A stretch of 63,373 nt of DNA, the filler included, from Collodictyon triciliatum (lineage: Eukaryota): assembly GCA_043381765.1 (NCBI GenBank). It is 5 parts of 5 records of this genome, joined end to end, with 100 filler letters (N's around TTAATTAATTAA, not from the genome) between each part and the next. Parts side by side here need not be neighbours in the genome. Positions count along the whole stretch, not along the records: positions 43,900 to 54,588 come from JBHJMP010001062.1; 4 more parts are not named here. One strand, 5' to 3'. Below are positions 7,273-54,808 of the stretch, piece by piece; position 1 is the stretch's first letter; each line of letters begins with the position of its first letter. Under the pieces are notes generated by a model. The model worked only from the letters and a program-made list of their open reading frames with translations. It was not told the origin of the DNA and did not search any database. Position numbers and translations under genes: made by a program.

Positions 7273-10200
7273 ATGGGATATCTATTTGCCTCCTCAGTCC
7301 TGATAGGTTTACATTGAGTGATCCTTTTTGAGAGTAGAGGTATCTATACGCATCTTAACGTTTGAAACAATCACATAGGAATACTCTGGGCACTCGGATG
7401 TATAACAGTGAGCTGCAACAGCGAAATTTTTACTGTGAGCAACGGGCACACAAAGACTGTAACGAGCGTGCACGCAACTGTAGATGGCTCAAAAGTTGTT
7501 TCCGGTAGCCAGGATTGCACTATCAAGATATGGAACCTTTCAGACGGCAGCCTCATTCGCACGTTAACAGGTCATCAAAACTACGTGAACAGCATCGTAG
7601 TCAACCAGGATGGGTCCCGCATCATTTCTGGAAGTAGCGATGAAACAATCAAGATTTGGGATACCTTCAACGGCATCGTTGTCCGCACTATCCCAGGGCG
7701 TTTTGGTGATATTTTGAGCCTTGCTTTGACTCCTGACGAAACTAATATTATATCTGGTAATAGTAGGAACACAGTAACCATATGTAGTTTCACTAGTGGT
7801 ATAGAGCTATATTCTTTAGAAGGCCATACAGGTTCCGTACGTTGTGTTGCCACTTCTCCTGATGGAAAACTCATCGCATCTGGGTCTGATGACAAAAATA
7901 TAATGATATGGAATATTTCCAATGGAACATCAGTCCAAAAACTTTCTGGTCATGAAGGTCCTGTCCTTTGTCTCTCATACACACTGGATGGCCTAAAATT
8001 AATATCAGGAAGCTCTGATACAACAATCATCATTTGGGACCCAAGAACCGGAGCTATTCTAAAAAAGTTGCTAGGGCATTTTAAGAGTGTGAATTCAGTC
8101 CAGGCATCCTTAGAGAAAAAAATAATTGCTTCCTGTGGTGAAGATAGCACAATTAAACTATGGGATATGGACAATGGAAACGTGATATCGTCATTTTTGG
8201 GCCACGAAAAAAGCATAAGAAGCATATACTTGTCTATCTATACATCGAGACTTTTTTCAGCAAGTTCTGATATGAAAGTTAAGGTTTGGAGTTTTCCAGA
8301 AGGCAATTTACTTCAAACACTAAACGCTATTATACTATGTGTGTCTACTTCAGCAGATGGCTTGAAAATAGCGACAGGATTGGATGATACCAATATCAAT
8401 ATCAGGGACTCAAGAGACGGTTCTATCATTCGCACACTTTGTGGACATGAGGGTTCCGTTAACAGTGTAGCATTCAGTAGTGACAGTATAAGGCTGGCAT
8501 CAAGTAGCAGCGATACAAAAATTAAAATATGGAACGTTTTAAGTGGCTCCTTGAACCTCACCTTAACCGGCCATACAAATTTTGTATGGGGAGTATCATT
8601 CTTAAACCAGGATTCGACTCTAATATCAGGCGGTGGAGATTACTCAATAAGAATTTGGGACACATCATCAGGTAAACAAAAGCAACTAATTATGGACAAC
8701 AATTGCGTAATTTACAGTGTCTCTTTTACTCCTGATAATACAAAATTCATATCTGGGGGGAGTGATACTAATGTTAAAGTATGGAATCAATCTGGAGGGT
8801 CTCTTATTCGTGTATTGGACGGGCATACAGATATTGTTTCTTGCGTATCTGTGACACCAGACGGAGTTTCTGTCATATCAAGCAGTTTTGATAGAACGAT
8901 TAAAATTTGGAGCATGTTGAGTTTGTCACTCACTCGAACACTTACCGGTCATAGCAGCTTTATATACTCTATTCACATAAACTCTTTCGGGACTAAAGTT
9001 GTCTCATCCGGGGGCGACTCTAGCATTAAAATATGGAACATATTAAATGGAGTCTTGATTGCATCAATAATCGGTCACTCAGATAAGGTAAATGGAGCGG
9101 TATTTGCCTCTAACGGATCGAAAATCATATCGGGAAGTAGCGACACGACATTAAGAATGTGGGAATCTCCTGATAATAACCTGGTGATGACATTTTATGG
9201 ACACACTTCATCGGTTAATAGCATCGCCATGTCACCTGATGACCTGACTGTGATATCTGGGGGCGGAATCTACGATAAGACTATAAAAATATGGGACGTT
9301 ACGGACGGAAAATTGCACAAAACCTTAAATAAGCATACTGACCTCGTTAGTAGTATTGCCATAACTGCCGATGGTATGACTGTTGTCTCAGGAAGCTGGG
9401 ATTGCACCATTAAGCTATGGTTCTACAACAATGGTTCTTTGATAAACTCATGGCATGCACATGATAATGGTGTGACAAGCACCCTTTTAACCCATGACGA
9501 CACAAGAATAATATCTGGCGGGAAAGACAATGCGATAAAGGTTTGGGATTTGGAGAGCGGATTGCTGGTCAAAATTATGTACGGGCACACAAATTACGTG
9601 AATGGAATTGCAATTACACCGCTGAATAAGAAAATACTTTCGGTTAGTGCCGACAAGACAATCAAAATATGGTCCTTGAGCGATGGTTCATTAATCAATT
9701 CAATACAAGCTCATACTGATGAAATATATTGCGTAGCAGTGACTCCAGACAGCTCCACTGCCATATCAGGGAGCAAAGATAACAATATCAAACTGTGGAG
9801 CATCGCTGATGGCAAATTAAAGCGGACAATCACAGGGCACAAAAAGAGCATATACAGTTTAGCTGTTAGTCCTGATGGGCTGGTATTTGTGTCAGCTAGT
9901 GCCGATGATACACTTAAAGTATGGAGTATAGTTGATGGCTTGCAAATAAGATCATTTTCGGCCGACACCTACGGCATTTACAGCGTTGCTTTTTCATACG
10001 ATGGGTCTAAGATTGTGTCGGGTGGCTCGAGCAATTCAGCCAAAATTTGGAATCCTTGTCTTGGCGGGTCTTTCTTCGACTTAGCCATGAATAAGTGTAT
10101 AGCATGTCCCCAAGGAACTTACAATAATGCAGATAATATATACTGGTGTAATCCATGCCCTCCTGGAACATTTAATTCAAAGAATGGATCTTCCAAGTTT

Positions 10201-12882
10201 GAGGATTGCATTCCTTGTGAAAGAGGAAAATTCAATCCCGACTATGGACAAGCAAACTGTCAAGATTGTACGCCAGGCACAGCAAATAATTTACAGGGAC
10301 AAACAAATTGTATTGATTGCACGTCAGGATTTTACAGTGATTACGGAAATACCTCTTGCATTAGCTGTCCTGTTGGTTCATATAATCCCACCCCCAGGGG
10401 AAGACATAAGGATTCTTGCAAGAAATGCGAACTGGGAACTTACAATAGTCAAATTGGGAAAACAGAATGTATTGACTGTCCGACAGGGTCATTCTCTGGC
10501 AGTGAAGGATCACAATTATGCCTACCATGTCCCCCGGGGCAATACACTGATAAAGTTAGAACAAAAAGTATGTGCACTCTATGTCCAGCAGGTACGGCTA
10601 ACGAAAAAAGTGGATCTCGTGATTTCTCTGACTGTAAACCATGTCCCAAAGGACAATTTACATCAATATCAGGGAAATCAGTATGTGAGTACTGCCCCCC
10701 TGGAACATTTAATCATAATGCAAATCAAACTTCTTGCATCAAATGCCCTCCAGGGACTTTTAATCCATTCTATGAACAAATTAGTAGCTCATCTTGTATC
10801 GATTGTCCTGTGGGTACTTATGAAAATCAGAATAACACAGATTGTTTGAGCTGTCCGGCTGGCACATACAATAACATAACGCGAGCATCTCATTCGGGAA
10901 TGTGTACGCTCTGCCCTGAGGGTAGCTACAGTTTTGAAAGAAGTCAATCTTGTAGCTTATGCACAGCTCGATCAACTACAGACCATAAGGGCTCAAAAAG
11001 TCCCGATGATTGTAAATGCATTTTAGGATTTAAACAATATAACTATGCATGTACTTGCGAGCCAGGAAATTACGAGGAGTATAATAGATGTGTCCCTTGC
11101 AAAGTGGGCACATACAAACCAGACTATGGCACTGATTTTTGCTTTCCATGCTCAAATAAATTTTCTACAAATGCGACTGGAGCAACTAATTTATCCCAAT
11201 GCATATGCAGTAAAGGCTTCGTATCCTACAATGGTACATGCGAATGCGCCCCCGGTTCATTTATGGACAGAAACGAGCGATGTACGAACTGCTCTTCGAA
11301 TTCTTACAATCCTGACTATGGACAAACATCATGCAGAGAATGCCCGTTCAACTCAGTCGCAGAAAAGACAGGATCTATCTCCATAAATGATTGTAGGTGT
11401 CTAGCATCCACTTACTTGGACTTAATTTCGAAACAGTGCCAGAAATGTCCTGATGGTTTCATATGTGATGGAAGCAGCGAATTACTGTTGGCGCCTGGTT
11501 ATTGGAAGGCACCTACTTCTGATGGGGTACACAAGGCTTTTAAGTGCACAAATGAATTTGCATGCCTTGGTGGGAATAATACATGCGCAGAGGGATATAA
11601 AGGGGCCCTTTGTAGTGTCTGTGAAAATGGGTATGGATCAGCAAGCTCTTTTTGCACAAAATGTCCATCGCTCGGCTGGGATTGGGTCTTGGCCATACTA
11701 AGCATATTGCTTCCACTTTGGTTTGTTTACTACATGATTGAACAGTCGAGACAGCCCCAAACAGGCAAAATATTGATTCTAAAATTACTTGCCACTCATT
11801 TTCAAATTCTATCTTCACTAGCCAATTTCGATGTCCGATGGACTTCTACATTAATTTCTATAATGAAATTTCCAGCTCTATTTTCTTTCTCTCTTTCTGT
11901 GGATAGCTACCCCATGGAGTGTCAGTTTGGCTTGAGCCTGTATGATAAGATCTTTTACACTATGCTAACCCCTGCCATTCTCTTTGGATTAGTTCTTATC
12001 GTCGTTTTCACCAAGGCATTACGGAATTGGTATGTGGGAGAGATGACTCGTAAAGATTTCACATATTTTCGGTTTCGACAGGAGATTATATACTCTATTC
12101 TTGTCATGCTGTTTTTCGTTCATCCTATCGTCACCGCTAATATCGCAAAAATTTTTCCGTGCGAAGAGTTGGGAGAAGTAAAGTACCTGAAATCAGATAT
12201 GTCTATTCAATGCAATGATTCATATTACCTGGCATGGCGCGGCATATCTTTGATTTACGTCATTTTGTATTGTTTTGCATGTCCTCTTCTTCTTTTTGTG
12301 CGGATAGTGAAAAAAAAGAAAGCACTTATGAACCCCACTTCGAGCACATATACGCTGCTCCGATTTGTAGTTGACGGGTACACCGAGAGGTGTCAGTATT
12401 GGGAGATAGTCTTGATGATGCAGAAGCTTCTGATAGTCATCATCAGTGTTTTCTTTGCAAGCTCTTTACAGATTTATTTTGGACTATGGCTCATTTTCGC
12501 AATGATTGCATCCACGTTATATTTTAAACCCTTCATGTCAAACATTCTCAAGAAAGCCCAGATTCAGTCTTTAATGGTTCTTTACTTTACTCTGATGTTG
12601 AGTCTCCTCTTTCGTTATTCTGAATTGAGCGGCTCCACAGAGACAATCTTGACTGCACTCGTGGTTATCAGCAACGGGCTGATTGCCTTGCTGTTCTTGT
12701 CCATCGGAGGTCCAGCCCTCATGCGATTACTGCTTCGTAACCTTTCGGGCCTTCTAGATTATCTGAAGGAGGCTGTCGTCGAAAACGTGTTGGTTGTGGG
12801 GCTGTTGAGATGTTTGGAGCCAAATAATCCGGATAAAAGAGCTCTCGAAATGACAGACTTTACAACAGACAGCGCCCTTTGA
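7273..12882 (+). CDS. Signal peptide + 21 WD40 repeats + Cys-rich (GCC2/GCC3, ephrin-receptor-like) repeats + multi-pass membrane domain
   Basis: Exon 1 7273-7306, GT-AG intron 7307-7378 and exon 2 7379-12882 join in frame to give N-terminal MGYLFASSVLIGILWALGCITVSC. 21 GH...WD-type repeats run to ~10053, then CxxCPxGT(Y/F) repeats to ~11666, then about 8-9 hydrophobic helices with GY..YWE and KPF motifs. Confidence 0.9.
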
Positions 12883-13106: not shown

Positions 13107-14841
13107 ATGAGCGATCTAGCAAAGCAGCAGCGCCAGAACATCGACGATCTAACAGAAAAGGTTTCTCCTTTTTCTTATTATCCACAAGATACGATTGATC
13201 GTCAAAAAAAAAAAGAAGAAAAGAAGAATAAAGCACAGAATAAAGAACCTTAGAAACGCCGATTGTTAGTTCATAGAGACACTGGAGATTCTGGACGCCC
13301 ACGTCGAGACTCTGATGAAAACCCACATGACTCGTGTCGAGAGTGAAGAGAGCACCGCGTTAGACCAGGTTTGCATCCTTTATTCCCGAAAAACAGCGCT
13401 TCTTTCTTTCTTTTCAGCGGACAACTCATACGCTACCACTATTACATTAGGTTGCATTTACATTCTAATGTATCATATTGTCTTCTATTGTAATCTTTTT
13501 ATATTGATTTAATTATACATTGTAGTCTTGTTATATCATATTATATCCCTTTTTTTTTTATTATGTCATATGCACGTTTTATATTCTAAACATGTCCTTT
13601 CCGCACAGCTGAAATACTTTCGCAACCAAGCGAGCAAGCCCCTCGACTTCATGGAGCGAACGGCCATAGCCCTGCGCGCTGTGCTCCCTTCATGGATCAA
13701 AGTCACTCATCAGATAACGGCAGTTGCCTCCAAAAGCACACAAAGTGCGATGAGACTCTTGCACAATCACCGCAATCTGAGTTCCTTGGGTGCATTCAGC
13801 GGATCTCTTGGGTATGAAATCAACCTGTATTTGCGTTTCGACGACCGACGCGACTTACCAGCGGACTTTTGCGAGTCTCCCTTTAGCATGCCTGCCAATC
13901 TATCTCCAAACGTGTATGAATGGATTACAACGTTGATGTATCCAATCCGCAGGGACATCAAGGAATGGGGTGTCCCTGTGAAATTGACCTCGGATGAGCA
14001 GTCTAATAGTGCCTCTGTGACAATATCGAGTCCGTGGGGAATCGCCATCCACCCATCGACGGGGCATATATACACGACAGATCACACCAATCCTGTGGTT
14101 TACATCTGGACCCACGAACAAGATGGGAATCTGAAAAACCTTGTGCGATTCAAGGAAGAATCAGGTGGCGGTAGAAAAAGCGGACTGTTGGTCAACCCAC
14201 GTGGTATTGCTATCTCCAAACAAGGACGAGTTGCCATTGCAGATTATGGAGGATGCCGATTGACATTAATGACCAGTGACCTGAAGCTGATTCGTCATGT
14301 CGCTGAAGTAAACAGCTCCATCTCACGCATGTCTGCCCCCTACAACGTTGTTTTTGATCAAGACGACAATATATATCTATCAGACAGCGGGAATCAACGA
14401 GTCCTCAAGTTCAACCACGAGGGCGAATATATCTACGAAATCCGAACTAGAAATATGGATTGTACAAACCCCATTCTTCAAGTTCCGCATGGAGAGAAAC
14501 TCTTCAAGTCGTCAGTAAATGGTGTCTCTGTGGATGAGAAAGGACGCGTCTTTGTTCTGACCAGTGGCGGAGATGTCATCAGAGTTTTTAAATCAAATGG
14601 AAGCTATGACTTCGACATTCCAATAAAGACGTTTGGTTCTGGCGGTTGGGGTTTTCTGGCCCGTGGGCCCAAAAGTACAGTTGTTGTCTCAGACTACAAT
14701 AACAGCCATATACGCTTCTACAATTATTCTGGTGAGTTGGTGAGTCAGATTGACTGCAGAGGCCCGCTGGGTTGCGTCTTTGACCCCACTGGGCGCTTCT
14801 ACTTTGTGCAGCACGATGCAAGCACACTGATGTGTGTCTAA
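13107..14841 (+). CDS. NHL-repeat beta-propeller protein with N-terminal helical/coiled-coil region
   Basis: Exons ~13107-13160 (MSDLAKQQRQNIDDLTEK), ~13270-13368 and ~13609-14841. NHL motifs: SPWGIAIH, NPRGIAIS..VAIAD, APYNVVFD..IYLSDSGNQRVLKF, GPLGCVFD. Confidence 0.8.
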
Positions 14842-35803: not shown

Positions 35804-38173
35804 AAGAGCCTTGTGCGACACAATGTTAATTGATGGCTTGGTGAAATGCTACTTATGATTACATATGTAATAATTTGTTGTGTTGTAATGGATTGGATTC
35901 ATAAAACCTTTCCTTTTTCCTTTTTCCTTAATTATATATTTGAGTGTTGCGTAAGCGGCATTATGATGCCATAAAAGACCAGTACATTTACCATTTTGTT
36001 GATAGAGGATATCAGCTATATGAGTAAATGAGTAAAGGCTTTGCTACACCAAATGAATTGTCTTCACATCGTGTCGGTACTTGCCTGAAAGGGAATCTTT
36101 TCATTCCCGAGGAGACTGTAACCCAAGATTCAAGCGTATGTGAGATTCATTCATCAGTACCCAAATGATTGCTTCGTGCGTGTCTGCACACGAGTCCTTC
36201 TAATGCCATGAGACCAAACAAAGATAAAAAAAATGTATATGCAACCTGCAGACAGGCACGAACGGTCTGTAAATCTTCATAATTAAAAAAAACGCAGCAT
36301 CTTTGTCAAATATACCAATTTTTGGGCTCATAAATCCCCCGAAGAAGCTACTAATTCAAATAAATCATTTCCTCGTCATCGATTTAATCATGCAGGCTAT
36401 CCTTGTCGAGTTGAGAGGGGTAGGCGGGCGTTGAGCGCAGCTTTGTGGAGTTAATTGGATGACTCCGGTGCTCTTCGCAACGAATATCTTTATCGCCTTG
36501 CGATGGCCAGGGATTGTGACGCTCCACAGTTAGAACACGTCCTTGCTGGGAACTGGGCCACTAAAGGGAGTCACTACACAAACTGGTGCGATATTTTCTG
36601 ATGGTCATACGCGGTGCCGTATCCCGACTCGGCGGGGAGCAGCTGCGTGGCTTCGGCATGGCTCCTGGCAGTAGTGTCTGCTGCGGGAGACAACGCACCC
36701 AACAGGCATGTCTCATATGCAAACTACGACATCTCATTTCTTGTTTTTTCTGTACACTTTCAACTAGTGGTTTGAAAATTTTGGTTATAACGCCAAAATA
36801 TACGCAATGTAAAAGATATAACCCAATCAATTTTTTTGTTCTTTAATATTCTACATCTTTTACAATTAAACTTCGTATCAAATTTTCGAATACATCATGC
36901 ATAATGTTTGCCCATCTTTGATTTTATTTATTTTAATCCAATCTACGATATATTTGTCAACCAGGTCAGTCAGCAAATCAAATACAATCACATCGAATCT
37001 ATGCATCAAAACTAATCTGACCTGAATCCATTTTTTCCACCCCCACGCAGGCACTACTTCCAGGCATCCCAATATGGACTCGCGGGTAAGCTGCTCCTCA
37101 TAAAAGCAAAGCATTTCTGCATAAAGACTTGGGATAGAACTGTTTGTAAACCTCGATGATGCTAATCCTGTGCGACCAAGGTTCTCCGTTTATTCAAGCT
37201 TCGCACCTTTCTTTTCCGTTCATTCTTAGACGGACAGCTTCGGCAGCTGCTCGCCTTGTGTGCCCGACCATTTTTATTTTATTTTATTTTGGCAGCAGCC
37301 TTTCAGCCAGCCACCAAGCAGTCCCGAGTCGAGGCAATCAGCAAATGGCGTCTGCAACCCACAACACCCCGCACAAGCGACACAATGTTGACTCACGGGC
37401 AAGGGCGCTCCATTATGTGAAGATACAAACAAATGCGCTTGACACACAAGAACACATGGAAGAATAGGAATTCAAAGCGACCAGTATGAAAGGTTCATTC
37501 GAAAAACGACACGTGCTGTAGTCTGACCACCAAAAGAAAGAAACTATGTGTAAAATGAATGTGGATTCAAAAGCAAGCTTTACCATCGAGCAAGGAAAGT
37601 AACTGTATACCGTACTGTTCTCACTATAAAAATATATATTGTGGAATTCACAGAATTTATTATTAAAATGACGCATGTCGGACATTAAACGTTTAATGAC
37701 ACCACATTCTGTAGCAATAATACAGATTGTGCAGCAAACAGACCGTTCATAGCTGCAGCTCATATGGAATTTCCTTAAACATAGCTGATCATCACCAAAC
37801 CCACACAACACAAAAGAATGACACACAGCCAAATCCTCGGAGCTAAAAGTGTTGGTGTGTTCGTATCTCCGTTTGTGATCGGTGGCTATGTTGGCCGCTG
37901 CGAAGTCACGATCCTCTTTCTCCAGCCAGAAACGCTGCTGCCTTGCGCTCTTACTTTCTACTACCAAAGCAGATCACTCATTCACGCTGCGCATTCTGTT
38001 CTCTGTGCACACAACCGCACCGCCCTCACTCGATCAACGCCTTTCCTGTGTGACCTGTCAAGTGCAGCCACAAAGCAAATAAACACTGCGCAACGCACTG
38101 ACATAAAACCGGCCCCTTTGTCCACACAGCCTCAGAACCCGTCCAAACTACTTACCGTCCCACTTCTGTCGCG

Positions 38174-40089
38174 ATGGCCGACGAGGCTGCGCTTTTGGAA
38201 GAGCTCCGAGAAATCACCGGACATGTCGACATCGCCTCTTTAAAAAACTCTGAGAGTCTAGACCTCGCTGGAAAAGGCCTGAAATCCGTTCCGCGTGGCG
38301 TTTCTTTGTTGGATCGATTGAAAAGGCTGGAACTTGGAGGAAATGAGTTGACCTCTGTACCTCGTGACGTTTTCTTGTTGGACCAATTGAAAAGATTGGA
38401 AGTCTCTATCAACAAGCTGTCTTCACTGCCTCCAGAAATATCGTGTTTGACTGGCCTCGAGTATTTTGATGTTGGTGATAATCAGCTGTCATCACTGCCT
38501 CTTGAAATATCATGTTTAACTGGTCTCAGAAAGTTGGGTGTTGATGGCAATCAGCTGCCATCACTGTCTCCAGGAATATCGTGTTTGACTGGTCTCATCG
38601 GGCTTTATGTTAGTGACAACCCGGTACATCTTGATCCATATGTTATTATATGTATATTTATTTGCTTTGACAAGAGAACGTGACTGAAAACATTACATGC
38701 AGATGGAGGAGCTCCCACCACAAATCACAGCACTCACAAATATGAAGAGGCTCTTGATTGTCAGCGACGCTGGTGTTATCAACATAAAGAGAGCACCACG
38801 GGGACTTTCAAACCTTCCAGTGTGGAACAACACAAAGAAACATGCGTCAGATGCGACACTGAGCTTTGCTGATGCCCTCCGAAAGCTGAAGCTCTACGAC
38901 CCCGTAAGCTACAGAACCATCCATCATTCAAGAACCTTTCACATACCATTTCCTGATATAATCTGCATCAATGCAGGTCTCGACCAACCCCATTATTCTG
39001 CCACGAGTCCACGAGGCAAATTCTGACAGCGCCCCGGTTGTTGGAGACTACGCAGACGTGATGGGAGTCGACCTCGCCAGGCAGGAGGTTCTCGGAGAAG
39101 GCGGCTTCGGGATGGCGTACAAGGTGCAGCTGCTCAAGGGCACAGTCGCTATCAAGGTGCTCAATAAGAAGGCGCAGCCAGGGACGGCCGAGTACGAGGA
39201 CCTGACGCGCGAGGCGAGGATGATGGTGGGGCTCTCTCACGCAAACATCATCGGCCTCTACGCCTACGGCTGCAAGAGTCAGACGGTCTTCTACGTCATG
39301 GAGTATGCCGATGGCCGCAGCATATGGAACGTCATCGAGGCCGCGGGCAAGGCACTGCCCTTCGCAGACTACATCCAGTACTCGGTCCATATCAATGCCG
39401 GCCTCAAGTACCTGCACACACGCACCCCGCCCGTGGAGCACCGCGACCTCAAGCCCGAGAACGTCCTCCTCTGTCGTGGCGTTGCAAAGATTTGCGACTT
39501 CGGCATCTCCTCGGCTCGCGAAACCATCTCCCGCACAACCGGCTTCAAAGGCACGCTCCACTACGCCGCTCCGGAGTACTTTGACAGGGACAAGGGCTAC
39601 GGACCTCTGAGCGACATGTATACCTTCGGCCTCGTTGTCTGGGCCATGGCTGAGGGCAAGCGCCCGTACAACAGTCTCAACATGGGCCAGATAATGAATG
39701 AGAAGCTGCAGCAGAGGCTTCCACTGGTTCCTCCCGCCATGTCTGCCAAGCTGGCCGCTATGCTGAACCAGTGCTGGTCTTTCGAGCCGCGTGGCCGCCC
39801 CTCTGCGACCGACCTGGAGTCCAGGCTGGCCGACATCAAGGCAAATCCAGGCCCTGCCATCGGCGAAAAGGGGAAATCTGTCAAGGATATGACTAACCCA
39901 GAACTCGTTGCCTATCTCAAGGGCAAGAACGTGTTGCCAGACTTTGTGTCTGCGGTTGTAGACCATGAGGCGAGTGGTGAGGACTTTATGCTTTTGAGCG
40001 AGAAAGACCTCACCTCTACCCCGTTCAACATGACCAAGTTCCAGGCAAGGGTTATTTTGAAGCTCATTGACGAAGCAAGGGCTTCTTAA
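38174..40089 (+). CDS. LRR + TKL-like Ser/Thr kinase + SAM-like domain protein (3 exons, ~587 aa)
   Basis: Exons 38174-38623, 38703-38903 and 38977-40089, all phase 0 with GT-AG. 23-aa LRRs; kinase motifs GEGGFG, VAIK, HRDLKPEN, DFG, APE; C-terminal VKDMTNPELVAYL...HEASGEDFMLLSEKDL resembles a SAM domain. Confidence 0.88.
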
Positions 40090-40340
40090 ACGTAATCCCT
40101 CCGTCATCCCCACTCCCTTCTCTCGCTCTCTCCCGGTTCTTGATGCTGACGCGCACCAAGCCATGGAGTCTTTTCCCTACTATCTCGCACCTCCGCATTG
40201 CGTCTCCACAACGGGGTAAAGAATGCAAAAAGAAAAAAACAAAGAGAGGGGTTTCGATCTTTCGATTGATTTACTCCTAGCGGGAAATATGTCGCCTCAG
40301 ATGTAGACGGCTGTTAAAAAACCTGTCAATTTTTTAGTGG

Positions 40341-41250
40341 TTACGCGGCGGTTACAAAGCTTCTCAAATGTGTAGACTCCATTTTCACAATAGCGGAATA
40401 TATAGCACCGTATATAAGCTCTCTTCGATCTAGTGCAATCCAGGCAAACATCGATTCAGCCGGTGGCTGTGAATGGCAGGCGAGGTATATAGACTGGAGG
40501 GCATACAATGACTCCAAGTCGATAGAAGACATACAAAACAAGCTCAAAACTCACTTCAACACCCCAGGTGATGCGCCCATCGAGGCGGAATGGCCAATAC
40601 TCAAAAAGCAATTCTCTATTCTTCTTATCCAAAAATCGAGTTGGTTCAAAAATAAGGATGGGGAGGAGCGGAAGAAGCTTGAAAGGGAAAAAGAGGCTCT
40701 CATGAAAGCAGCCGGTAGACCATCGGGGTGGAAACGCACCCAAAAAGAAAAACTGGCGAGCTTGGAGGATAAACTTGCCGAGCAGCTAACATCAGATATT
40801 CACAAATACCGCGAAAAATGGGAAGCGAGATACTTGCGAGACTTTGAGCAGATGGAGAAATGGTTCTTTGGACTAGGAAAGGAAAAAGAAAAGACCTTGT
40901 ATCCGTCCTGCACACCATCTGAGGACATGCAGCATTTATTACCTCGCAACAACAAAAAGAACACCCACGACTTCTTCTCAAAGATGTGGTCAAGACGAGA
41001 CTATGATGCTGCTACTCTCGAGCTTATCACCACAAATTGCTCCAAGGCTTCACCCTCGCAAGCAGCCAGCATGATAGCACCAATAGATGCAGGCGAATTG
41101 TGGAAAGCGGTCAAGTCGCTACACAACGGAAAGGCGCCAGGACCAGATAGGCTGCCCAACGGAATATACTCTACTTTCTTTAATGAGGTCAAGACATCTT
41201 TAGTGGCTTTTCTGAATGGAATCATGTCTGATGGCGACCTACTGCAAGGA
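40341..41250 (+). mobile_element. non-LTR retrotransposon ORF2 internal fragment (linker + start of RT), disrupted
   Basis: PIDAGELWKAVKSLHNGKAPGPDRLPNGIY..F is the conserved K(A/S)PGPDG region just before the LINE RT core. The frame breaks and the sequence turns into AT-rich DNA before the RT catalytic motifs. Confidence 0.8.
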
Positions 41251-41974
41251 TTTACATTTAATTTATTTTTAATGGGATTTTAAACGCTCGATGTAAAACA
41301 TGAGTATCAATTCTAGTCAGTTTATACATCCACAAGTGCAACATGTGAAATCAATAATTATAATGATTAAACCGCCTACAAATAGTCTTAACCATGATTT
41401 TATGTCCATTTATTCAAGACTTTGCCATGATTGTATGGCATCATTATGCACAATGCGGCTCTGAGTACACATATCGAAATAATAGTGCAGAAAACGATAT
41501 ATATTTCCGAATAATAAAAAATTGATATGATGCACAACATAATTTTTACTCTTCCATACAGATGTGTGAGATAGGGTGTTTTGGGTTTTGTTTTGTAGCC
41601 GATACACAATGCGAAATACAACACAGAAGGAGGTTTAATTGGTGATAGAATGACAAGATATATAATTGAATTTCTTCTCTTCTATTTTATGCTGTGCTGT
41701 TCTGTATGTAAAGAATGTGAATAAAAATAAATTAAACTATAAATATATTTGTTTTTGTGACAGTAGACTATTTGTGATTATATACTTAATAAATATTTGT
41801 TGGACTGTCATTATGTAACTTGAGATGAGGGTGTTTTTCAGCTCTTTTATTCTTTCAATAAACTGATGTGATGAAAAAAATTTATTCTAACCGCCAGAAT
41901 AAAAAGCGTTGTCCTCAACTGGACACAATTTCACAGCCGACGTTGATAAATAATCAAAGAATTCATATTTAAGT

Positions 41975-42114: not shown

Positions 42115-45100
42115 ATTTAAAAAAGAAAAAGTTTTTAAATCAACAAAATTGACATATAAATCGTAGAAAGGCATAATATGTTGGATTTTTTATGAATATA
42201 TATCTTATTTAACTCTTTTCATAAAGGACTTGTTGCGGAGCTGTGTTATAATTTTTATTTTCAATATTTTCAATTTTAAATACAACAAATAAGTCTTTTA
42301 AATAAGAGATGAAAGAAGAAAAAAATATGTGCCAGGAATTTGTGATGTATAATATAATAATGGGCTATTATTTACGAAGCAGGCACCCATGACAACCTTC
42401 CAGGATAATCTTGTGTTAAAATACATTTTGAAACTTAAGCAAGTATTATCTTACTTTTATTTTCACAAACACCATAATACCATATGAGTCCCGGAATATA
42501 TGCCTCCAGGCTTCGACACTTGTTGGATGTTCCAGTCTGATGACGCCTTCATAAATGTCGTACTTTTAGAACATGCCCATAAACTCGTAATCAACGCATC
42601 GAACCAGGAGCCTATTCTCTTTACTGACATGCACAATCAAAAAGTGAGTCTATGGAGTCTCTAATTTTGCCTTTACCTTTCATGGTGCAAATAAACGAGA
42701 CCCTGTTTTGTTTAATTTTTGAATTATTTTGTTACCAGAGTCTGTCTCATCCAAACTTCCTTGGCTATCAAAAGTAACCGAGAGCGTGTGATTGTACGTT
42801 TTTTTTTATGAAATCCTTTTACGTCCGATAATTGTGAAAAGTTTCAAACAGTCAGCGCAAAGCTTCATTTTATGGTATTTATAGCATGCAAACGCAATGA
42901 GTCTTTTATCAGACACAGAAATGACTTTCGGTCTGTGTACCAAAATAGGGAATTTTATTTGTACATTAATACAGGAACATGTGTAACTGAGTCTGTTGCG
43001 AACTGTATGTAAACGCATCTGCTGGTCTTCATGTGTGCTATTACTGTTTTCGTTCTGTGGATGAGCACATACGATTCATGGACACTAAACTTGAGCTTAA
43101 GTGTTGACATCATAAATAGCTTTAGGATTTACTGCAATATATGTAGGCGATGCAAAAATGTGATAAAATATTGATTTAGAGTGACCTCTGTGCTTTTTTT
43201 TGATTTATGTGAGACTAGGGAAATTTTTGTAAGATGCGTGTAATTTTTGGGGCGAATTCTGTGGCATTTCATTCAAACACAATGATTCGATCGCACTGTC
43301 TTATTTATTCTTTCGAAATATATCGTAGCACACCGAAGATAATCTGAAGAGCAGATATTTCAATGATGCGTCATTTTTTTTTGGAGTGAAAGATGATAAC
43401 ATTTTCTTGATTAAGTGAATTACATTCCCGTTTGAATATATGAAAGCTATTTTTCAGACTATTTCATGAGCGTGCATAGAGCTTTATCGGTGATGTAAGT
43501 TAAGTGGATATCACAGACAAGATCGTCTTTTGGCTTTTCGAGTGGGTCAAAGGCACAGTGCTTCAAGGATTCCAGGTGTTGAATTATATGATTTAATATT
43601 AACCAATTATGTACATATCAAATCATAAAACATATGACAAGCAAAGGATAAAATACAATTTTAATGATATTTGTTTATTGGGCGTCGGTGACATTTACAA
43701 AATAGACGTCTACTATAGATTTTTAGCCTTTCATTGGATAATTGTGCTTGCGTACCTAAACATTCTTTAAATATATGGCTCATTTGTTGTTTATTTGCAN
43801 NNNNNNNNNNNNNNNNNNNNNNNNNNNNNNNNNNNNNNNNNNNTTAATTAATTAANNNNNNNNNNNNNNNNNNNNNNNNNNNNNNNNNNNNNNNNNNNNT
43901 TCTTGCAATTCGTGATAGAAAATGCTCTCTTTTTTTTTATTGATGCACTGGGGTCATTCTGATATTTCAATTGTAATTTCTTGAATGTTTTTCCCTGCGT
44001 TTTTTCGAGCATTCAAAGAAAAATATTATGTCATATTCTGCAGGTTTTTCATTCGCGCAAGTAAAATCATTTCGTCGAATCATTTCAAGGGCATTTTCTT
44101 GGATAATTCAAAGAATAATGCTCAATGAAACTTCTAGTTGCTCTGTAGGGCATTGGATAGATATATGAGGAAGCCCGCTTCCCACTTGTCTTTTATTTTC
44201 AAAAATCCCACGAAATGTTGTTATGTGTATTTCCCATAAATAATTTTCGAGATTTGACCGGAAAATATGAAATCCCATCTCCCAGATGTTTTTTCTTTGA
44301 GGAGCAACCCAGAGTCGTGAGTGATGGGTGAACCTGCCAACAATTAACTAAGGTAATCCTCTTAGTGCATCACATGTCTCTATGGAATTCCCACTGGCCC
44401 ATATGAAACGAAACTACAAGCCTACCACAAGGCTGATGGCAGTCATGCGCGGCCTGAACGAAGACAAGAAGCTCATTAATATGAGCGAATGAGCATAATG
44501 TTAACCGCAGCACAAGACATCCACCAAGCTGCGCCCGAAGTGCCACAGAATCCAAGCGCCCTTGAAAACGCTGGCCGTGTTAGTTTTTGTTTTTAAACTA
44601 CTCTGTGTTCCTTCGATACAAGGATTTGTAAGGCGAGTTTCTCCTGCGCCAGGAAAAGCTATTTGCTTTCGTGTGAATAGTCCTGCGGATTAATACTAAT
44701 GTAGTGCTTGGTGTTCGCCTATAACGAAAAGTGTTGGACGGGCTTTAAACCTGAGGATACATTAGTGGCGGATGCTCAAGCGAATTCATGAAACCAGCAT
44801 TNNNNNNNNNNNNNNNNNNNNNNNNNNNNNNNNNNNNNNNNNNNNNNNNNNNNNNNNNNNNNNNNNNNNNNNNNNNNNNNNNNNNNNNNNNNNNNNNNNN
44901 NNNNNNNNNNNNNNNNNNNNNNNNNNNNNNNNNNNNNNNNNNNNNNNNNNNNNNNNNNNNNNNNNNNNNNNNNNNNNNNNNNNNNNNNNNNNNNNNNNNN
45001 NNNNNNNNNNNNNNNNNNNNNNNNNNNNNNNNNNNNNNNNNNNNNNNNNNNNNNNNNNNNNNNNNNNNNNNNNNNNNNNNNNNNNNNNNNNNNNNNNNNN

Positions 45101-45740: not shown

Positions 45741-48700
45741 ATGACTCACAGCCACGCCAATCCCCGCGTTCTGCCCGTTCCCATCCCTGTCACACGTCGC
45801 TCCGCAACTCTGGGGACAGGCAGAACTCCAGTCGATCACGCTCACGCGCACCGCTTTGCGCCAAACACCAACGAGGCCGATCCCTGTCCAAATGCCCCAA
45901 ACTTCCCAGTTTCGGCCTCTCATCCAAGCTCAGTGTCCTCAGCGAGTACTTCGCCGTCTCCAAACGTCCGCTTTGAGGCGCATATTCCAACGACGGCTCT
46001 TTCCCAGCATCGACCTCAGTCTCAGTCTCAGTCTCAGTCTCAGTCTCAGTCTCAGTCTCAGTCTCAGTCTCAGTCTCAGTCTCAGTCTCAGTCTCAACAA
46101 GTCAACGTGGTGACGATTCCAAACCAGTTGTATAGCAGCCTTGATTTGCGTATTCGGAATGATTCATTACTGCGGGCTGTAAGAAAGATGCCCATGGAAA
46201 AGGTACCGTGTTGGGCTATGCGACAAGGTTTATGTAGCTATCGGACGCTGTGCGCAGGAAAGTCCTTCTGGGAGGTTTGTTTTGATTGACGTCTGTTTTT
46301 CTTTGTATTTCTTTGTTTTCTTTTTCTTTTTCTTTTTTCTTTTTTCTTTTTTCTTTTTTCTTTTTTCTTTTTTCTTTTTTCTTTTTTCTTTGTTTTGTTT
46401 TGTTTTTGTTTTTGTTTTTGTTTTTGTTTTTGTTTTTGTTTTTGTTTTGTTTATACCATTTGCTATAATATCCAGTCACAAGGTGTATTTTGGTTTCATG
46501 TCTTTGTGAATGAATGACTAGGTATGTTGCACTCCTGAGATAGCCTCTGATTGCACTGTCGCTCCTGTTAGAAGCTTTGGTGTTGATGCAGCCATCTTGT
46601 TCACTGACATACTCGCTCCTTTGCAATCATTTGGAGTTCGAGTCATCAATGATACTCGCTACGGTATTGCATCGAAAATCATCTATATTTTTATTTATAA
46701 TTGTAAAACATCGTTTTCTTTATTTTAGCAACACTATTTCCTCATTTTTCTTTTCATTTTCTATCACCACCACTACAGTTATTTATCCAACACTTAAGCC
46801 AGGCAACAATTTCAAGTAATTTTTGATACTACCTCTTGTTTTAACGTTGATTCCTCAAAGGAATGATGCTTTCTTCGGCTCTCAAGCGACCTGACCAAAT
46901 GAGATTGGCAACAGCAAAAAATATCACTGCTGCAGTCCTACATGTGATTGAAACTATTCGACTCTCCAAAATGAAACTCCGAGGAGAAGTACCTCTCATT
47001 GGTAACCCTTTCTTTTTTTTCTTTTTTCTTTTTTTCTTTCTTTTTTCTTTCTTTTTTCTTTCTTTTTTCTTTCTTTTTTCTTTCTTTTTTCTTTCTTTTT
47101 TCTTTCTTTTTTTTCTTTTCTTTTTCTTTTTCTTTCTTTTTCTTTCTTTTTCTTCTTTTTTCTTTTTTCTTTTTCTCTTCGTTTTTACGAGTGGAAATAA
47201 AACTACTAAATTGTTTATCCTTCTTAACACGTGCGATTGATCCATGATTATTTTGGGATAACCACCGCTCATTTATTTAGACGAATACTTAGTCCACTCT
47301 ACTCTGATCGAGTATAATAAATTCGCCTAATCGCACTTTGCAGGAATAATCGGAAGCCCATTTACACTCTTTTGCTTTCTGGTTGATTCCAAAGCGAACC
47401 CAGGACTCCACAGAATCAAAAAATGGCTGCTAAAGTATGCTTCAGAGTGCCATTTACTCCTCCAAAGAATTACGGATCTGCTCTATGACTTTTCTGTAAT
47501 GCAGATTGAAAATGGTGTGCAAGTGAGTGCGTGCCGCTCATAAAGCATTGAATGGATTGTTAAATCAGCTATCCAGTCATTATTTTTCTCCTTACTTTAA
47601 ACCATTCCGAATTCTATAAATATTAGAATATGCGCGCTCTTGTTCTCGTTCTTTGATAAAATCAATATGATGTCATCATCATAGAAGGAGTTATTTCAGC
47701 CTTATTTTTTATTAGACTGAATTTCGACTAAAGATACATATCATCAAAGGTAATTCAAGTATCAGAGTTGCTTCTTGGAGAAATCCCAGATTTTTTGCAC
47801 AATACCTATGGATTTCAATATCTACGCGACTATTCTAAAAGAATAAAAAAGGTACCACATCCCTTCGAAACATGAACGCAAAAAGATTGGTATTATTATC
47901 TTATACTTAACACGCGTATGTCTTGTGAACTGAATATCACGTCATATATGCGTCCAATCCGCAGAACTGGCCTCACGTCCCTTTGGTCATATACGCCAGA
48001 GGCTTGGGCTCGAGGCTTAATGAGGTCATTGAACTTGGTTTTGACGTTTTGTCGCTGGACCACAAGGTTGACCCGCTCCAGGCAAATGTAGCAAACAAAG
48101 GGCGTATTGCATTACAAGGAAACCTTGACCCAACTGTGCTTTTGCAGGACACCAACACAATTCACCGAGAAGTATTTCGCATCACTCATAGATACTTCAC
48201 CTCATATCTATTCACAACCGACCCTAGCACAATAATACCACAATCATCCCTCGTTTAAACTCGAACGAAACTGCAGTTGGTTTTCTTTCATGTATGCTAA
48301 AACCCTGTCATTCCGATATCACCAGGTCAACATTATGCTTAGCGGGTTTGGAAAAGTCGGAATAATTGCAAACCTCGGCTCCGGGATGGAACCTGATACC
48401 GACCCAACATCCGTCACTGCATTTGTCCAGGCGGTGCACAATTTCTCTCTACAAAAAGTGTCAGAGCCTCACTCATCCAATATGTCACATACGCACTCCC
48501 TCTCAAACCGAAGTGAGTCCTGGGTCGACCAATCGGGTGGGTACTATCGGAGCGAGAGGCTTTCCAAAGGGCATGAATCCGAAAATGGTGCTTCCATCTA
48601 CCACGCCATTTCAGCGCATTCAGCAAGCTCAGTATTCTCGTTTTCAGAGTCATTTGTTACATCCAGTCTTTTTCGGGCGATGCGCAAGTCTGAGTGGATT

Positions 48701-48798
48701 CCTGACCATTGTGTAGATGCGTGTACGATGTGCGATAAGCGATTTGGATTCTTCCGCAGGAAAGTAGTGATTCCGATTTATTTATTTATTATTTATTG

Positions 48799-48897
<99 letters not shown>

Positions 48898-49076
48898 TTC
48901 TTGGCATTATCAAAGAAATCGCAAACTCATGTGTCCACAAACTATAGCACCACTGTCGAAAATGTGGCAATATATTTTGTCACAAATGCTCCTCCAAAAA
49001 TGCAGTCATCAGTTTCTCCGACCCTCCTGTTCGCGTTTGTGACAAATGTTATGGAGCGCTTAATTTTATTGTCTGA
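45741..49076 (+). CDS. Uroporphyrinogen decarboxylase-like domain (degenerate active site) fused to C-terminal FYVE zinc finger
   Basis: Eight GT-AG exons (45741-46274, 46522-46663, 46861-47001, 47344-47522, 47750-47851, 47965-48171, 48326-48763, 48948-49076). UROD motifs: NDSLLRA, PCWAMRQ, DAAILFTDIL, VPLIG..GSPFTL, QIENGVQVIQ, LQGNLDP, IANLGSG. FYVE: WIPD..CTMC..F..FRRKHHCRKCGNIFC..C..RVCDKC. Confidence 0.88.
46017..46097 (+). repeat. (CAGTCT)n coding microsatellite encoding a Gln-Ser dipeptide run
   Basis: Perfect hexamer tandem repeat in frame within exon 1 of the UROD-FYVE gene. Confidence 0.9.
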
Positions 49077-54588: not shown

Positions 54589-54808
54589 NNNNNNNNNNNN
54601 NNNNNNNNNNNNNNNNNNNNNNNNNNNNNNNNTTAATTAATTAANNNNNNNNNNNNNNNNNNNNNNNNNNNNNNNNNNNNNNNNNNNNGTGTTTTTTTAT
54701 GTGTTTTTTATGTGTTTTTTTATGTGTTTTTTATGTGTTTTTTATGTGTTTTTTATGTGTTTTTTTTGTGTTTTTTTTGTGTTTTGTGTTTTGTGTGTCT
54801 TTCTACAG

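Follow-up and report, generated by a model that had tools for sequence, protein, structure and literature searches.

Uroporphyrinogen decarboxylase (UROD, also HemE) is regarded as a housekeeping enzyme that is soluble and stands alone, and we know of no UROD paralogues that moonlight in another role. Among described systems in which a conserved protein has gained a membrane-binding module, the FYVE-Rheb and PX-Rheb fusions of Euglenozoa and Cryptista are interpreted as giving the protein a new membrane address and as marking clades, with paralogues that duplicated after the fusion, in the part of their description available here (PMC5869587). This analysis concerns a gene on the plus strand at positions 45741-49076 of a 63,373-nucleotide stretch of Collodictyon triciliatum DNA (assembly GCA_043381765.1), hereafter the window, within the part derived from record JBHJMP010001062.1. 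The predicted product starts with a disordered N-terminal region, followed by a complete barrel of the URO-D family (PF01208), ~80 amino acids of Ser-rich linker and a canonical FYVE finger (PF01363), and is referred to as UROD-FYVE. Both domains belong to textbook families, and their combination is undescribed in the literature that was searched, in keeping with the original prediction, which knew of no such architecture among characterised proteins.

The fusion was proposed to be independent of how the gene is spliced, and this is borne out by exon 7 (48326..48763), a single uninterrupted exon in which the barrel finishes (IANLGSG...FVQAVHNF) and the finger begins (WIPD..CTMC..FFRRK). Within this exon NLGSG lies at 48371-48385, the barrel ends at ~48445, the linker occupies ~48446-48691 and the first third of the FYVE domain comprises WIPD (48695-48706), CTMC and FGFFRRK. 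The single translation of the exon matches URO-D profile positions 314-345 and FYVE profile positions 1-24, and aligns to human UROD residues 323-361. The FYVE portion in exon 7 alone scores 17.6 bits, under the Pfam gathering cut-off of 27.8 bits, while exon 8 (48948..49076; FYVE profile positions 25-65), with HHCRKCG, CHKC, RVCDKC and the stop codon, exceeds the cut-off by itself with 48.6 bits. The RRKHHCRKCG motif straddles intron 7 (48764..48947), which holds an (ATTT) array of ~31 copies (Tandem Repeats Finder, 48776-48899). A 224-nucleotide contig from a freshwater metatranscriptome (X1) is identical to 48602-48762 with 0 differences and then runs from 48762 into the first bases of exon 8, and thus intron 7 is removed in frame and the two halves of the FYVE domain are joined in RNA. 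The final base of exon 7 is G in the contig and A in the genome, a synonymous difference in a Lys codon. The RNA comparison covered 47200-48798, of which the contig covers 48602-48762 only.

The complete model consists of eight exons and seven introns, all GT..AG, with a joined frame that is open for 623 codons plus TGA and a barrel that aligns without gaps to P0001, a homologue from Diphylleia rotans described below. The ATG at 45741 and the TGA at 49076 agree with the gene bounds of the original prediction, and every motif that it quoted (MRQGLCSY, FTDIL, GSPFTLFCF, VSELL, NLGSG, WIPD, RRKHHCRKCG and RVC) was found. Exon 1 (45741..46274) encodes the low-complexity, Ser/Gln/Pro-rich N-terminus (amino acids 1 to ~132) and then the start of the barrel, with MRQGLCSY at 46218-46241; this placement is based on URO-D profile positions 3-43 (E 8e-6) and on an alignment with bacterial URODs of the PDB that extends to MRQ. 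Tandem Repeats Finder and translation reveal an in-frame CTCAGT hexanucleotide microsatellite of 13.7 copies in this exon (46015..46096), encoding (SQ)n. Exon 2 (46522..46663; URO-D profile 46-85, E 9e-10; aligned to human UROD 59-98) carries the family-specific motif VCCTPEIASDCTVAPV, identical in P0001, and FTDIL. Exon 3 (46861..47001) is a barrel segment, exon 4 (47344..47522; URO-D profile 143-200, E 4e-11; aligned to human residues 155-212) carries GSPFTLFCF, exon 5 (47750..47851) carries VIQVSELL and is placed by alignment, and exon 6 (47965..48171; URO-D profile 237-303, E 5e-12) is a barrel segment with LQGNLDP. A Pfam scan of the eight exon translations found URO-D in five of them, colinear over profile positions 3-345. 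Exons 3 and 5 have no Pfam match alone, yet both align without gaps to the Diphylleia homologue, exon 3 to P0001 and P0223 alike. At the level of solved structures, UROD chains account for 20 of the 22 matches of exon 6 at E up to 1, and the top match of exon 4 is 1r3w, a chain of the Y164F mutant; a literature search for the Y164F and D86N mutants returned no match. Separately, the introns of the gene contain T-rich and (ATTT)n microsatellites at 46296-46452, 47009-47176 and 48776-48899, and long homopolymer-like coding runs (poly-Ile, poly-Asp, poly-Asn) also occur in other frames of the window.

The same two-domain layout occurs in Diphylleia rotans, a freshwater predator and diphyllatean flagellate of the CRuMs, a deep-branching and barely studied lineage of eukaryotes. 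Exon 6 (69 amino acids) was searched exhaustively with HMMER against 1.84 billion cluster representatives (E up to 1e-3), which yielded 103 proteins, none above 55% identity, and the top match was P0001 (548 amino acids, 49% identity), where the position of the match is as expected for the layout of the window protein. Ten of the 103 were scanned with Pfam: P0001 (URO-D 271 bits, FYVE 72.7 bits) and the N-truncated P0019 (375 amino acids, FYVE 73.3 bits) have URO-D followed by a C-terminal FYVE, and the other eight comprise two UROD fragments (P0002, P0004), P0016, P0066 and four chance matches to WD40. A motif check of all 253 collected proteins found the FYVE signature only in P0001, P0019 and P0223, and a cluster look-up identified these three as EukProt transcripts of Diphylleia rotans. 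They represent two genes, P0001 and P0019/P0223, the latter being isoforms of 375 and 474 amino acids (P0223 is full-length), and the independent Trinity transcripts of the two genes share the layout. As exon 6 has no match above 55% identity, the window's organism would be a relative of the Diphylleia rotans strain in EukProt and not that strain itself, unless the gene is missing from its transcriptome; judging from these homologues and the freshwater RNA match, it is probably a diphyllatean or a relative of one. With an intron spliced in RNA and the layout repeated in two paralogues of another organism, the fusion proposed from the window is real, expressed and conserved.

Further searches extended neither the family nor its published record. 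A word-based search with the whole of P0001 found URO-D and FYVE together only in P0001 itself among the best 120 of 2254 matches, a search that missed P0019 and is thus not exhaustive, and the family-specific residues 60-165 of P0001 returned 31 matches with FYVE in the query alone. In JGI metagenome contigs the degenerate pattern VCCxPxIASDCTV gave 0 matches, and the patterns G[RK][SN]FWEVC and P[ED]IASDCT gave 98 pattern matches with 0 confirmed by tblastn. The exon 7 query gave no usable match in the ESM Atlas, and a word-based search with it among longer proteins scored 0 of 150 candidates, which is uninformative given that P0001 was not among the candidates. UROD and FYVE are co-mentioned only in proteome or expression lists, as far as titles and the beginnings of abstracts reveal; the main text of a survey of FYVE and PX architectures (PMC2837644) contains no uroporphyrinogen, URO-D or heme; and 'uroporphyrinogen decarboxylase' does not appear among the matches listed for the Diphylleia, Collodictyon and CRuMs literature. 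So far, UROD-FYVE has been seen only in the window gene and the two Diphylleia paralogues.

The sequences of the three full-length proteins suggest that the fusion is old. The window protein is 47% identical to P0001 and 44.5% to P0223, and these two are 46% identical to each other; each is 32-44% identical to canonical URODs. The barrel of the window protein (amino acids ~133-478) is 53% identical to that of P0001 and 46.5% to that of P0223, over 346 positions with no gap among the three, and its FYVE domain is 59% and 51.5% identical, respectively. Conversely, the linker is gapped and only 24% and 24.5% identical, and the N-terminal extensions are unrelated low-complexity sequence that cannot be compared. 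High identity of the domains next to a linker at ~24% points to selection on both domains and not on the tether, and both appear to have been under purifying selection since the fusion. The tree was built from 55 rows, the three family barrels and 52 canonical URODs, the latter consisting of the named ones, every third of 115 (330-410 amino acids) and four from the search with the family-specific region, with others omitted. The three UROD-FYVE barrels form a single clade (support of 100 in the Shimodaira-Hasegawa-like approximate likelihood ratio test) on a stem of 1.12 changes per site, approximately five times the median end branch of 0.22. P0001 and the window protein are sisters (support 99) and P0223 branches outside them, which means that the fusion predates an old duplication. 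The UROD-FYVE fusion thus appears to be one event, which preceded a duplication that itself predates the split of the window's organism from Diphylleia, and both domains have apparently been kept since then while the linker has not been conserved.

The finger itself has the features of a PI3P (phosphatidylinositol 3-phosphate)-binding FYVE domain, for which WxxD, R(R/K)HHCR and RVC are the defining motifs. These were said to be intact, and they are: the window protein has WIPD, RRKHHCR and RVC, and P0001 and P0223 have WVPD, RKHHCR and RVC. All eight zinc-binding Cys are present in four CxxC pairs (CTMC, CRKC, CHKC and CDKC) when aligned to the Pfam profile and EEA1, and the four pairs occur in P0001 and P0223 alike. 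A hydrophobic stretch, FGFF, FGLF or FGLL in the three proteins, lies just before the basic motif. Among solved structures, exon 8 is closest to 1hyi and 1joc, chains of the EEA1 FYVE domain (E 7e-13). By its motifs the finger is therefore of the PI3P type, and we infer from this that it would bind the lipid.

The barrel is a member of PF01208 by both profile and fold, with five of eight exons colinear on the profile, a URO-D score of 271 bits in P0001 and a template modelling (TM) score of 0.91-0.92 for the P0001 model against human UROD. It has nevertheless diverged from canonical URODs at positions that are close to invariant in them. Residues of the cleft were assigned human numbering by PDB alignment of the exons, and conservation was taken from a 118-row alignment that included 115 canonical URODs. 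Of 82 columns conserved in at least 90% of the canonical sequences, the window protein keeps 53, P0001 59 and P0223 61, and 19 are altered in all three. Common to the three proteins are Arg37, Gln38, Phe55, Asp86, Ile87, Leu88, LQGNLDP and the IANLGxG frame; the equivalents of Arg37 and Asp86 in the window protein are Arg161 and Asp207 (the latter in FTDIL of exon 2), and both are kept in P0001 and P0223. These two residues belong to the chemistry of the enzyme: in the portions of the mechanistic literature available here, Arg37 is the protonated residue that aids decarboxylation (PMC4145669) and Asp86 holds the pyrrole NH groups of the macrocycle (PMC3510221, PMC4145669).

The MRQAGRY lid motif is replaced in all three proteins, reading MRQG-LCSY in the window protein, with Ala39 changed to Gly and Gly40-Arg41 deleted. 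Ala39-Gly40-Arg41, Phe154 and His339 are 100% conserved in the 115 canonical URODs, Phe217 is 99% conserved and Arg50 95%. Arg50 is replaced by Cys in the window protein and P0001 and by His in P0223. In the order window protein, P0001 and P0223, Phe154 (amino acid 274 of the window protein, exon 4) has become Ile, Ser and Leu, Phe217 has become Ser, Asn and Met, Ser219 has become Leu, Phe and Phe, His220 has become Leu, Leu and Tyr, and His339 has become Ser, Gly and Gln; the replacements at 217, 219 and 220 lie in exon 5. Tyr164 is Phe in the window protein (Phe284) and remains Tyr in the other two. The window protein consequently lacks the canonical set of carboxylate and ring contacts at Arg50, Phe154, Tyr164, Phe217, Ser219 and His339. 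Other positions have changed in the same way in all three proteins: Gly39 and the deletion of 40-41 are joined by Phe56 to Trp, Cys at 60, Glu67 to Asp, Cys at 68, Ser85 to Thr, Phe at 162 and Cys at 163.

The original prediction had taken such losses to indicate a pseudoenzyme. The loss of canonical, invariant cleft residues stands, while inactivity is not established, given that Arg37 and Asp86 are kept. Its further suggestion of a porphyrin or haem sensor is speculative. The change of His339 to Ser, which was part of that argument, is present and proves little alone, as two other proteins in the collection have Gly or Ser at this position: P0101 (385 amino acids), which is full-length and otherwise canonical with MRQAGRY, FSDIL, GAPWTL..Y and FDS, and P0042 (178 amino acids), a C-terminal fragment with FDS and LQGNLDP. 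Because both lack His339, this residue does not seem to be universally required by sequence. The canonical reaction is argued against, and a dead enzyme is not proven, because the residues of the chemistry survive and most of the groups that hold the carboxylates are gone. The cleft therefore appears remodelled rather than simply dead. It should also be noted that the Cys at human positions 60, 68 and 163, fixed in all three UROD-FYVE proteins (amino acids 181, 189 and 283 of the window protein, at 46527-46529, 46551-46553 and 47373-47375), occur in none of the compared canonical URODs, and that human Cys65 and Cys66 are lost in the family.

Structure predictions were made for P0001. In the AlphaFold2 model (50-row alignment) the predicted local distance difference test (pLDDT) is above 90 for the barrel (61-410), below 50 for the N-terminus (1-56) and the linker (411-483), and 55-82 for the FYVE domain. 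Foldseek placed human UROD first, with the TM score given above, a root mean square deviation of 1.9 A over 351 columns and 36% identity. UROD homodimers have solved structures, and two copies of P0001 60-410 were likewise predicted to form a symmetric interface, with a score of 0.46 compared to 0.00 for the best of three controls, a result that may reflect the solved UROD dimers. Contacts agree to at least 92% among the three runs, with a partner pLDDT of at least 88. In a calibration on microbial proteins, the mark for this score was reached by 21 of 30 solved same-chain pairs and 0 of 23 single chains. The UROD-FYVE barrel may well be dimeric like UROD.

Tentatively, we favour a function in which UROD-FYVE, docked on PI3P and probably dimeric, uses its barrel to bind or process a ligand that is not uroporphyrinogen III. 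Endosome or phagosome membranes rich in PI3P would recruit the protein to their cytosolic face through the FYVE finger, and the barrel dimer would present two fingers and thereby add avidity. The ligand bound or processed in the remodelled cleft may be less acidic than uroporphyrinogen III, and another tetrapyrrole would be the simplest candidate. Asp86 and Arg37, described as holding and protonating the macrocycle, are retained, with the carboxylate grip mostly gone (Arg41 deleted; Arg50, Ser219, His220 and His339 replaced) and the aromatics Phe154 and Phe217 lost. A protein of this kind would not serve bulk haem synthesis. We infer docking on PI3P, dimer avidity and a ligand of this nature, and also that the canonical reaction has been lost.

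Several observations weigh against this proposal. Of the 14 UROD cleft residues listed in the available part of PMC3510221, only 4 are canonical in all three proteins and 6 (50, 154, 164, 219, 220 and 339) vary among them, and because these six positions vary, the cleft may be under relaxed constraint rather than forming a new, defined pocket. Keeping both Arg37 and Asp86 would not be surprising by chance, since ~57% of the conserved columns survive in the three proteins alike. The fold and dimer predictions were run on P0001 and not on the spliced window protein, and the predicted interface has no extra conservation (11 of 31 positions invariant, compared to 117 of 305 in the rest of the barrel). 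Additionally, since the FYVE finger puts the barrel on the cytosolic side, direct contact with pigments of prey in the lumen is impossible. Set against the varying positions are the shared derived states, which were fixed after the fusion and so suggest a new constraint on the cleft; the former would speak for relaxation and the latter for constraint, and with three sequences the two are inseparable.

An alternative is an inert scaffold, a barrel without ligand chemistry that persists as a stable, dimerising body presenting two FYVE fingers, or a new protein-binding surface, on PI3P membranes. This is the rival that survives best, and we regard it as possible though doubtful. The six varying residues among the 14, the long stem branch and the 19 of 82 conserved columns lost in all three proteins are consistent with it, as is the dimer prediction for P0001 (well above its controls, with the same possible memory of solved UROD dimers). 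A single FYVE finger has only weak affinity for membranes, and dimers are common among FYVE proteins, for instance EEA1, which is in line with a dimerising body. However, a mere spacer would not need the derived cleft states Trp56, Cys60, Cys68, Thr85, Phe162 and Cys163 that are fixed in the family, nor does it account for the retention of Arg37, Gln38, Phe55, Asp86, Ile87 and Leu88 despite only 45-47% overall identity, or for a barrel of 346 positions without an insertion or deletion among the three proteins.

It is unlikely that UROD-FYVE is still a working UROD that makes coproporphyrinogen for the haem pathway, alone or beside another such enzyme, and has only moved to endosomal membranes. 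A full-length barrel with Arg37 and Asp86 would allow it, His339 is not strictly needed judging from P0101 and P0042, and no canonical Diphylleia UROD is present in the best 120 of the 2254 matches to P0001, a weak point in its favour. These points are opposed by the change or deletion of Ala39-Gly40-Arg41, Phe154, His339, Phe217 and Arg50, all near-invariant in canonical URODs, and by the loss of three of the four basic side chains (Arg41, Arg50 and His339) named as binding or contacting the substrate in the accessible part of PMC3510221. The family stem, about five times as long as the median end branch, also speaks against it, and the other UROD fusions, P0066 and P0016, keep the canonical motifs.

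The favoured function, a docked barrel with a ligand of its own, has a more specific form that we consider quite improbable: a handler of tetrapyrroles in an alga-eating predator, with its cleft held on the cytosolic side of phagosomes that carry PI3P. In this position it would capture or modify metal-free tetrapyrroles (breakdown products of chlorophyll or haem, or porphyrinogens) as they leave digested prey, and if true it would be a lineage-specific answer to the phototoxicity of pigments or a means of haem salvage. The genetic basis of chlorophyll detoxification in protists was still called unknown in 2019, in the part of that report available here (PMC6775998). Against this form, chlorophyll catabolism is phylogenetically widespread, while the UROD-FYVE family has apparently been found only in diphyllateans. 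Lastly, an artefact, whether a chimera of the assembly, a gene model joined wrongly or a pseudogene in decay, is close to refuted: there are N runs in the window, a single short RNA contig and no transcript seen from exon 1 to exon 8, and against these stand the uninterrupted fusion exon, seven of seven GT-AG introns with 623 open codons, the splicing of intron 7 in RNA, and two independent Diphylleia transcripts that share the layout and align to the barrel without gaps.

Other parts of the window hold further features. An open frame of 1838 amino acids at 7366-12882 (+) has ~18 WD40 repeats, 9 Ephrin_rec_like Cys-rich repeats and a long hydrophobic C-terminal part, and looks like an unusual receptor-like architecture judging from its domains. 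It is followed at 13513-14841 (+) by a frame of 442 amino acids with NHL repeats and an SGL-type beta-propeller. Leucine-rich repeats at 38102-38683 and a protein-kinase domain at 38962-40089 probably constitute one leucine-rich repeat kinase gene with an intron (38102-40089, +). A frame of 321 amino acids at 40318-41283 (+) has no Pfam match, and we take its end to resemble the start of a reverse transcriptase of the LINE (long interspersed nuclear element) type. Paired runs of 44 N, 12 bases apart, occur at 25131-25230, 43800-43899, 54589-54688 and 61946-62045, and N blocks of 423-458 bases at 17139, 44802 and 57516; the regular pattern of the N runs looks like masking or scaffolding and not biology.

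The UROD-FYVE family would be a case in which a copy of UROD was joined to a membrane-address module, then duplicated, and kept for a long time in the CRuMs with a remodelled cleft. For the study of enzyme evolution this may provide a clean, natural case of the transition from an enzyme to something else. For cell biologists, the family is a candidate for connecting tetrapyrrole handling with the PI3P-marked endosomal and phagosomal system; to our knowledge, very few proteins are known with a role in carrying haem or porphyrins across, and then away from, digestive compartments. For systematics, the fusion may mark diphyllateans, as FYVE-Rheb marks Euglenozoa.

Compared to canonical UROD/HemE (PDB 1URO, 1R3Q, 1R3Y), UROD-FYVE has the same full-length barrel, and all PDB matches of its exons are HemE-type; the P0001 model superimposes on it, with a symmetric homodimer as a prediction, and Arg37, Asp86, LQGNLDP and IANLGxG are kept. 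It is unlike canonical UROD in the lid, where Gly40-Arg41 are absent and Ala39 is Gly, in its long stem branch, in the replacement of Arg50, Phe154, Phe217, Ser219, His220 and His339 (and of Tyr164 by Phe in the window copy only), and in the addition of a disordered N-terminal extension, a C-terminal linker and a FYVE finger. The MtaA/MtbA methyltransferases (PDB 4AY7) share the barrel fold, at a Foldseek TM score of 0.85 (rank 25), with 20% identity as opposed to 36% to human UROD at 0.92, and no exon matches them at the sequence level in the PDB. An identity as an MtaA-like methyltransferase was rejected on these values in favour of a HemE-derived barrel. Like the FYVE domain of EEA1 (PF01363; 1HYI, 1JOC), the finger has WxxD, R(R/K)HHCR, RVC and four CxxC pairs, and it differs in being joined to an enzyme-derived barrel and not to a coiled coil or a trafficking domain.

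Fusions in which UROD is one module of a longer polypeptide were also recovered in the collected proteins, namely a HemD-HemE fusion (P0066, 646 amino acids) and two fusions of HemE with porphobilinogen deaminase (P0016, 713 amino acids; P0139, 716 amino acids, known from its listed Pfam domains alone). In P0016 and P0066, unlike in UROD-FYVE, the motifs MRQAGRY, FSDIL, GAPWTL..Y and NLGHG are kept, and the join is between neighbouring enzymes of the haem pathway with no new membrane address. In its logic, UROD-FYVE appears most analogous to the FYVE-Rheb and PX-Rheb fusions, in which, likewise, a lineage-specific PI3P-binding module sits on an otherwise soluble and conserved protein. The two differ in that the Rheb fusions, so far as the available part of their description goes, concern a GTPase that keeps its function and carries the module at its N-terminus, whereas UROD-FYVE would be a remodelled metabolic barrel with the module at its C-terminus (PMC5869587).

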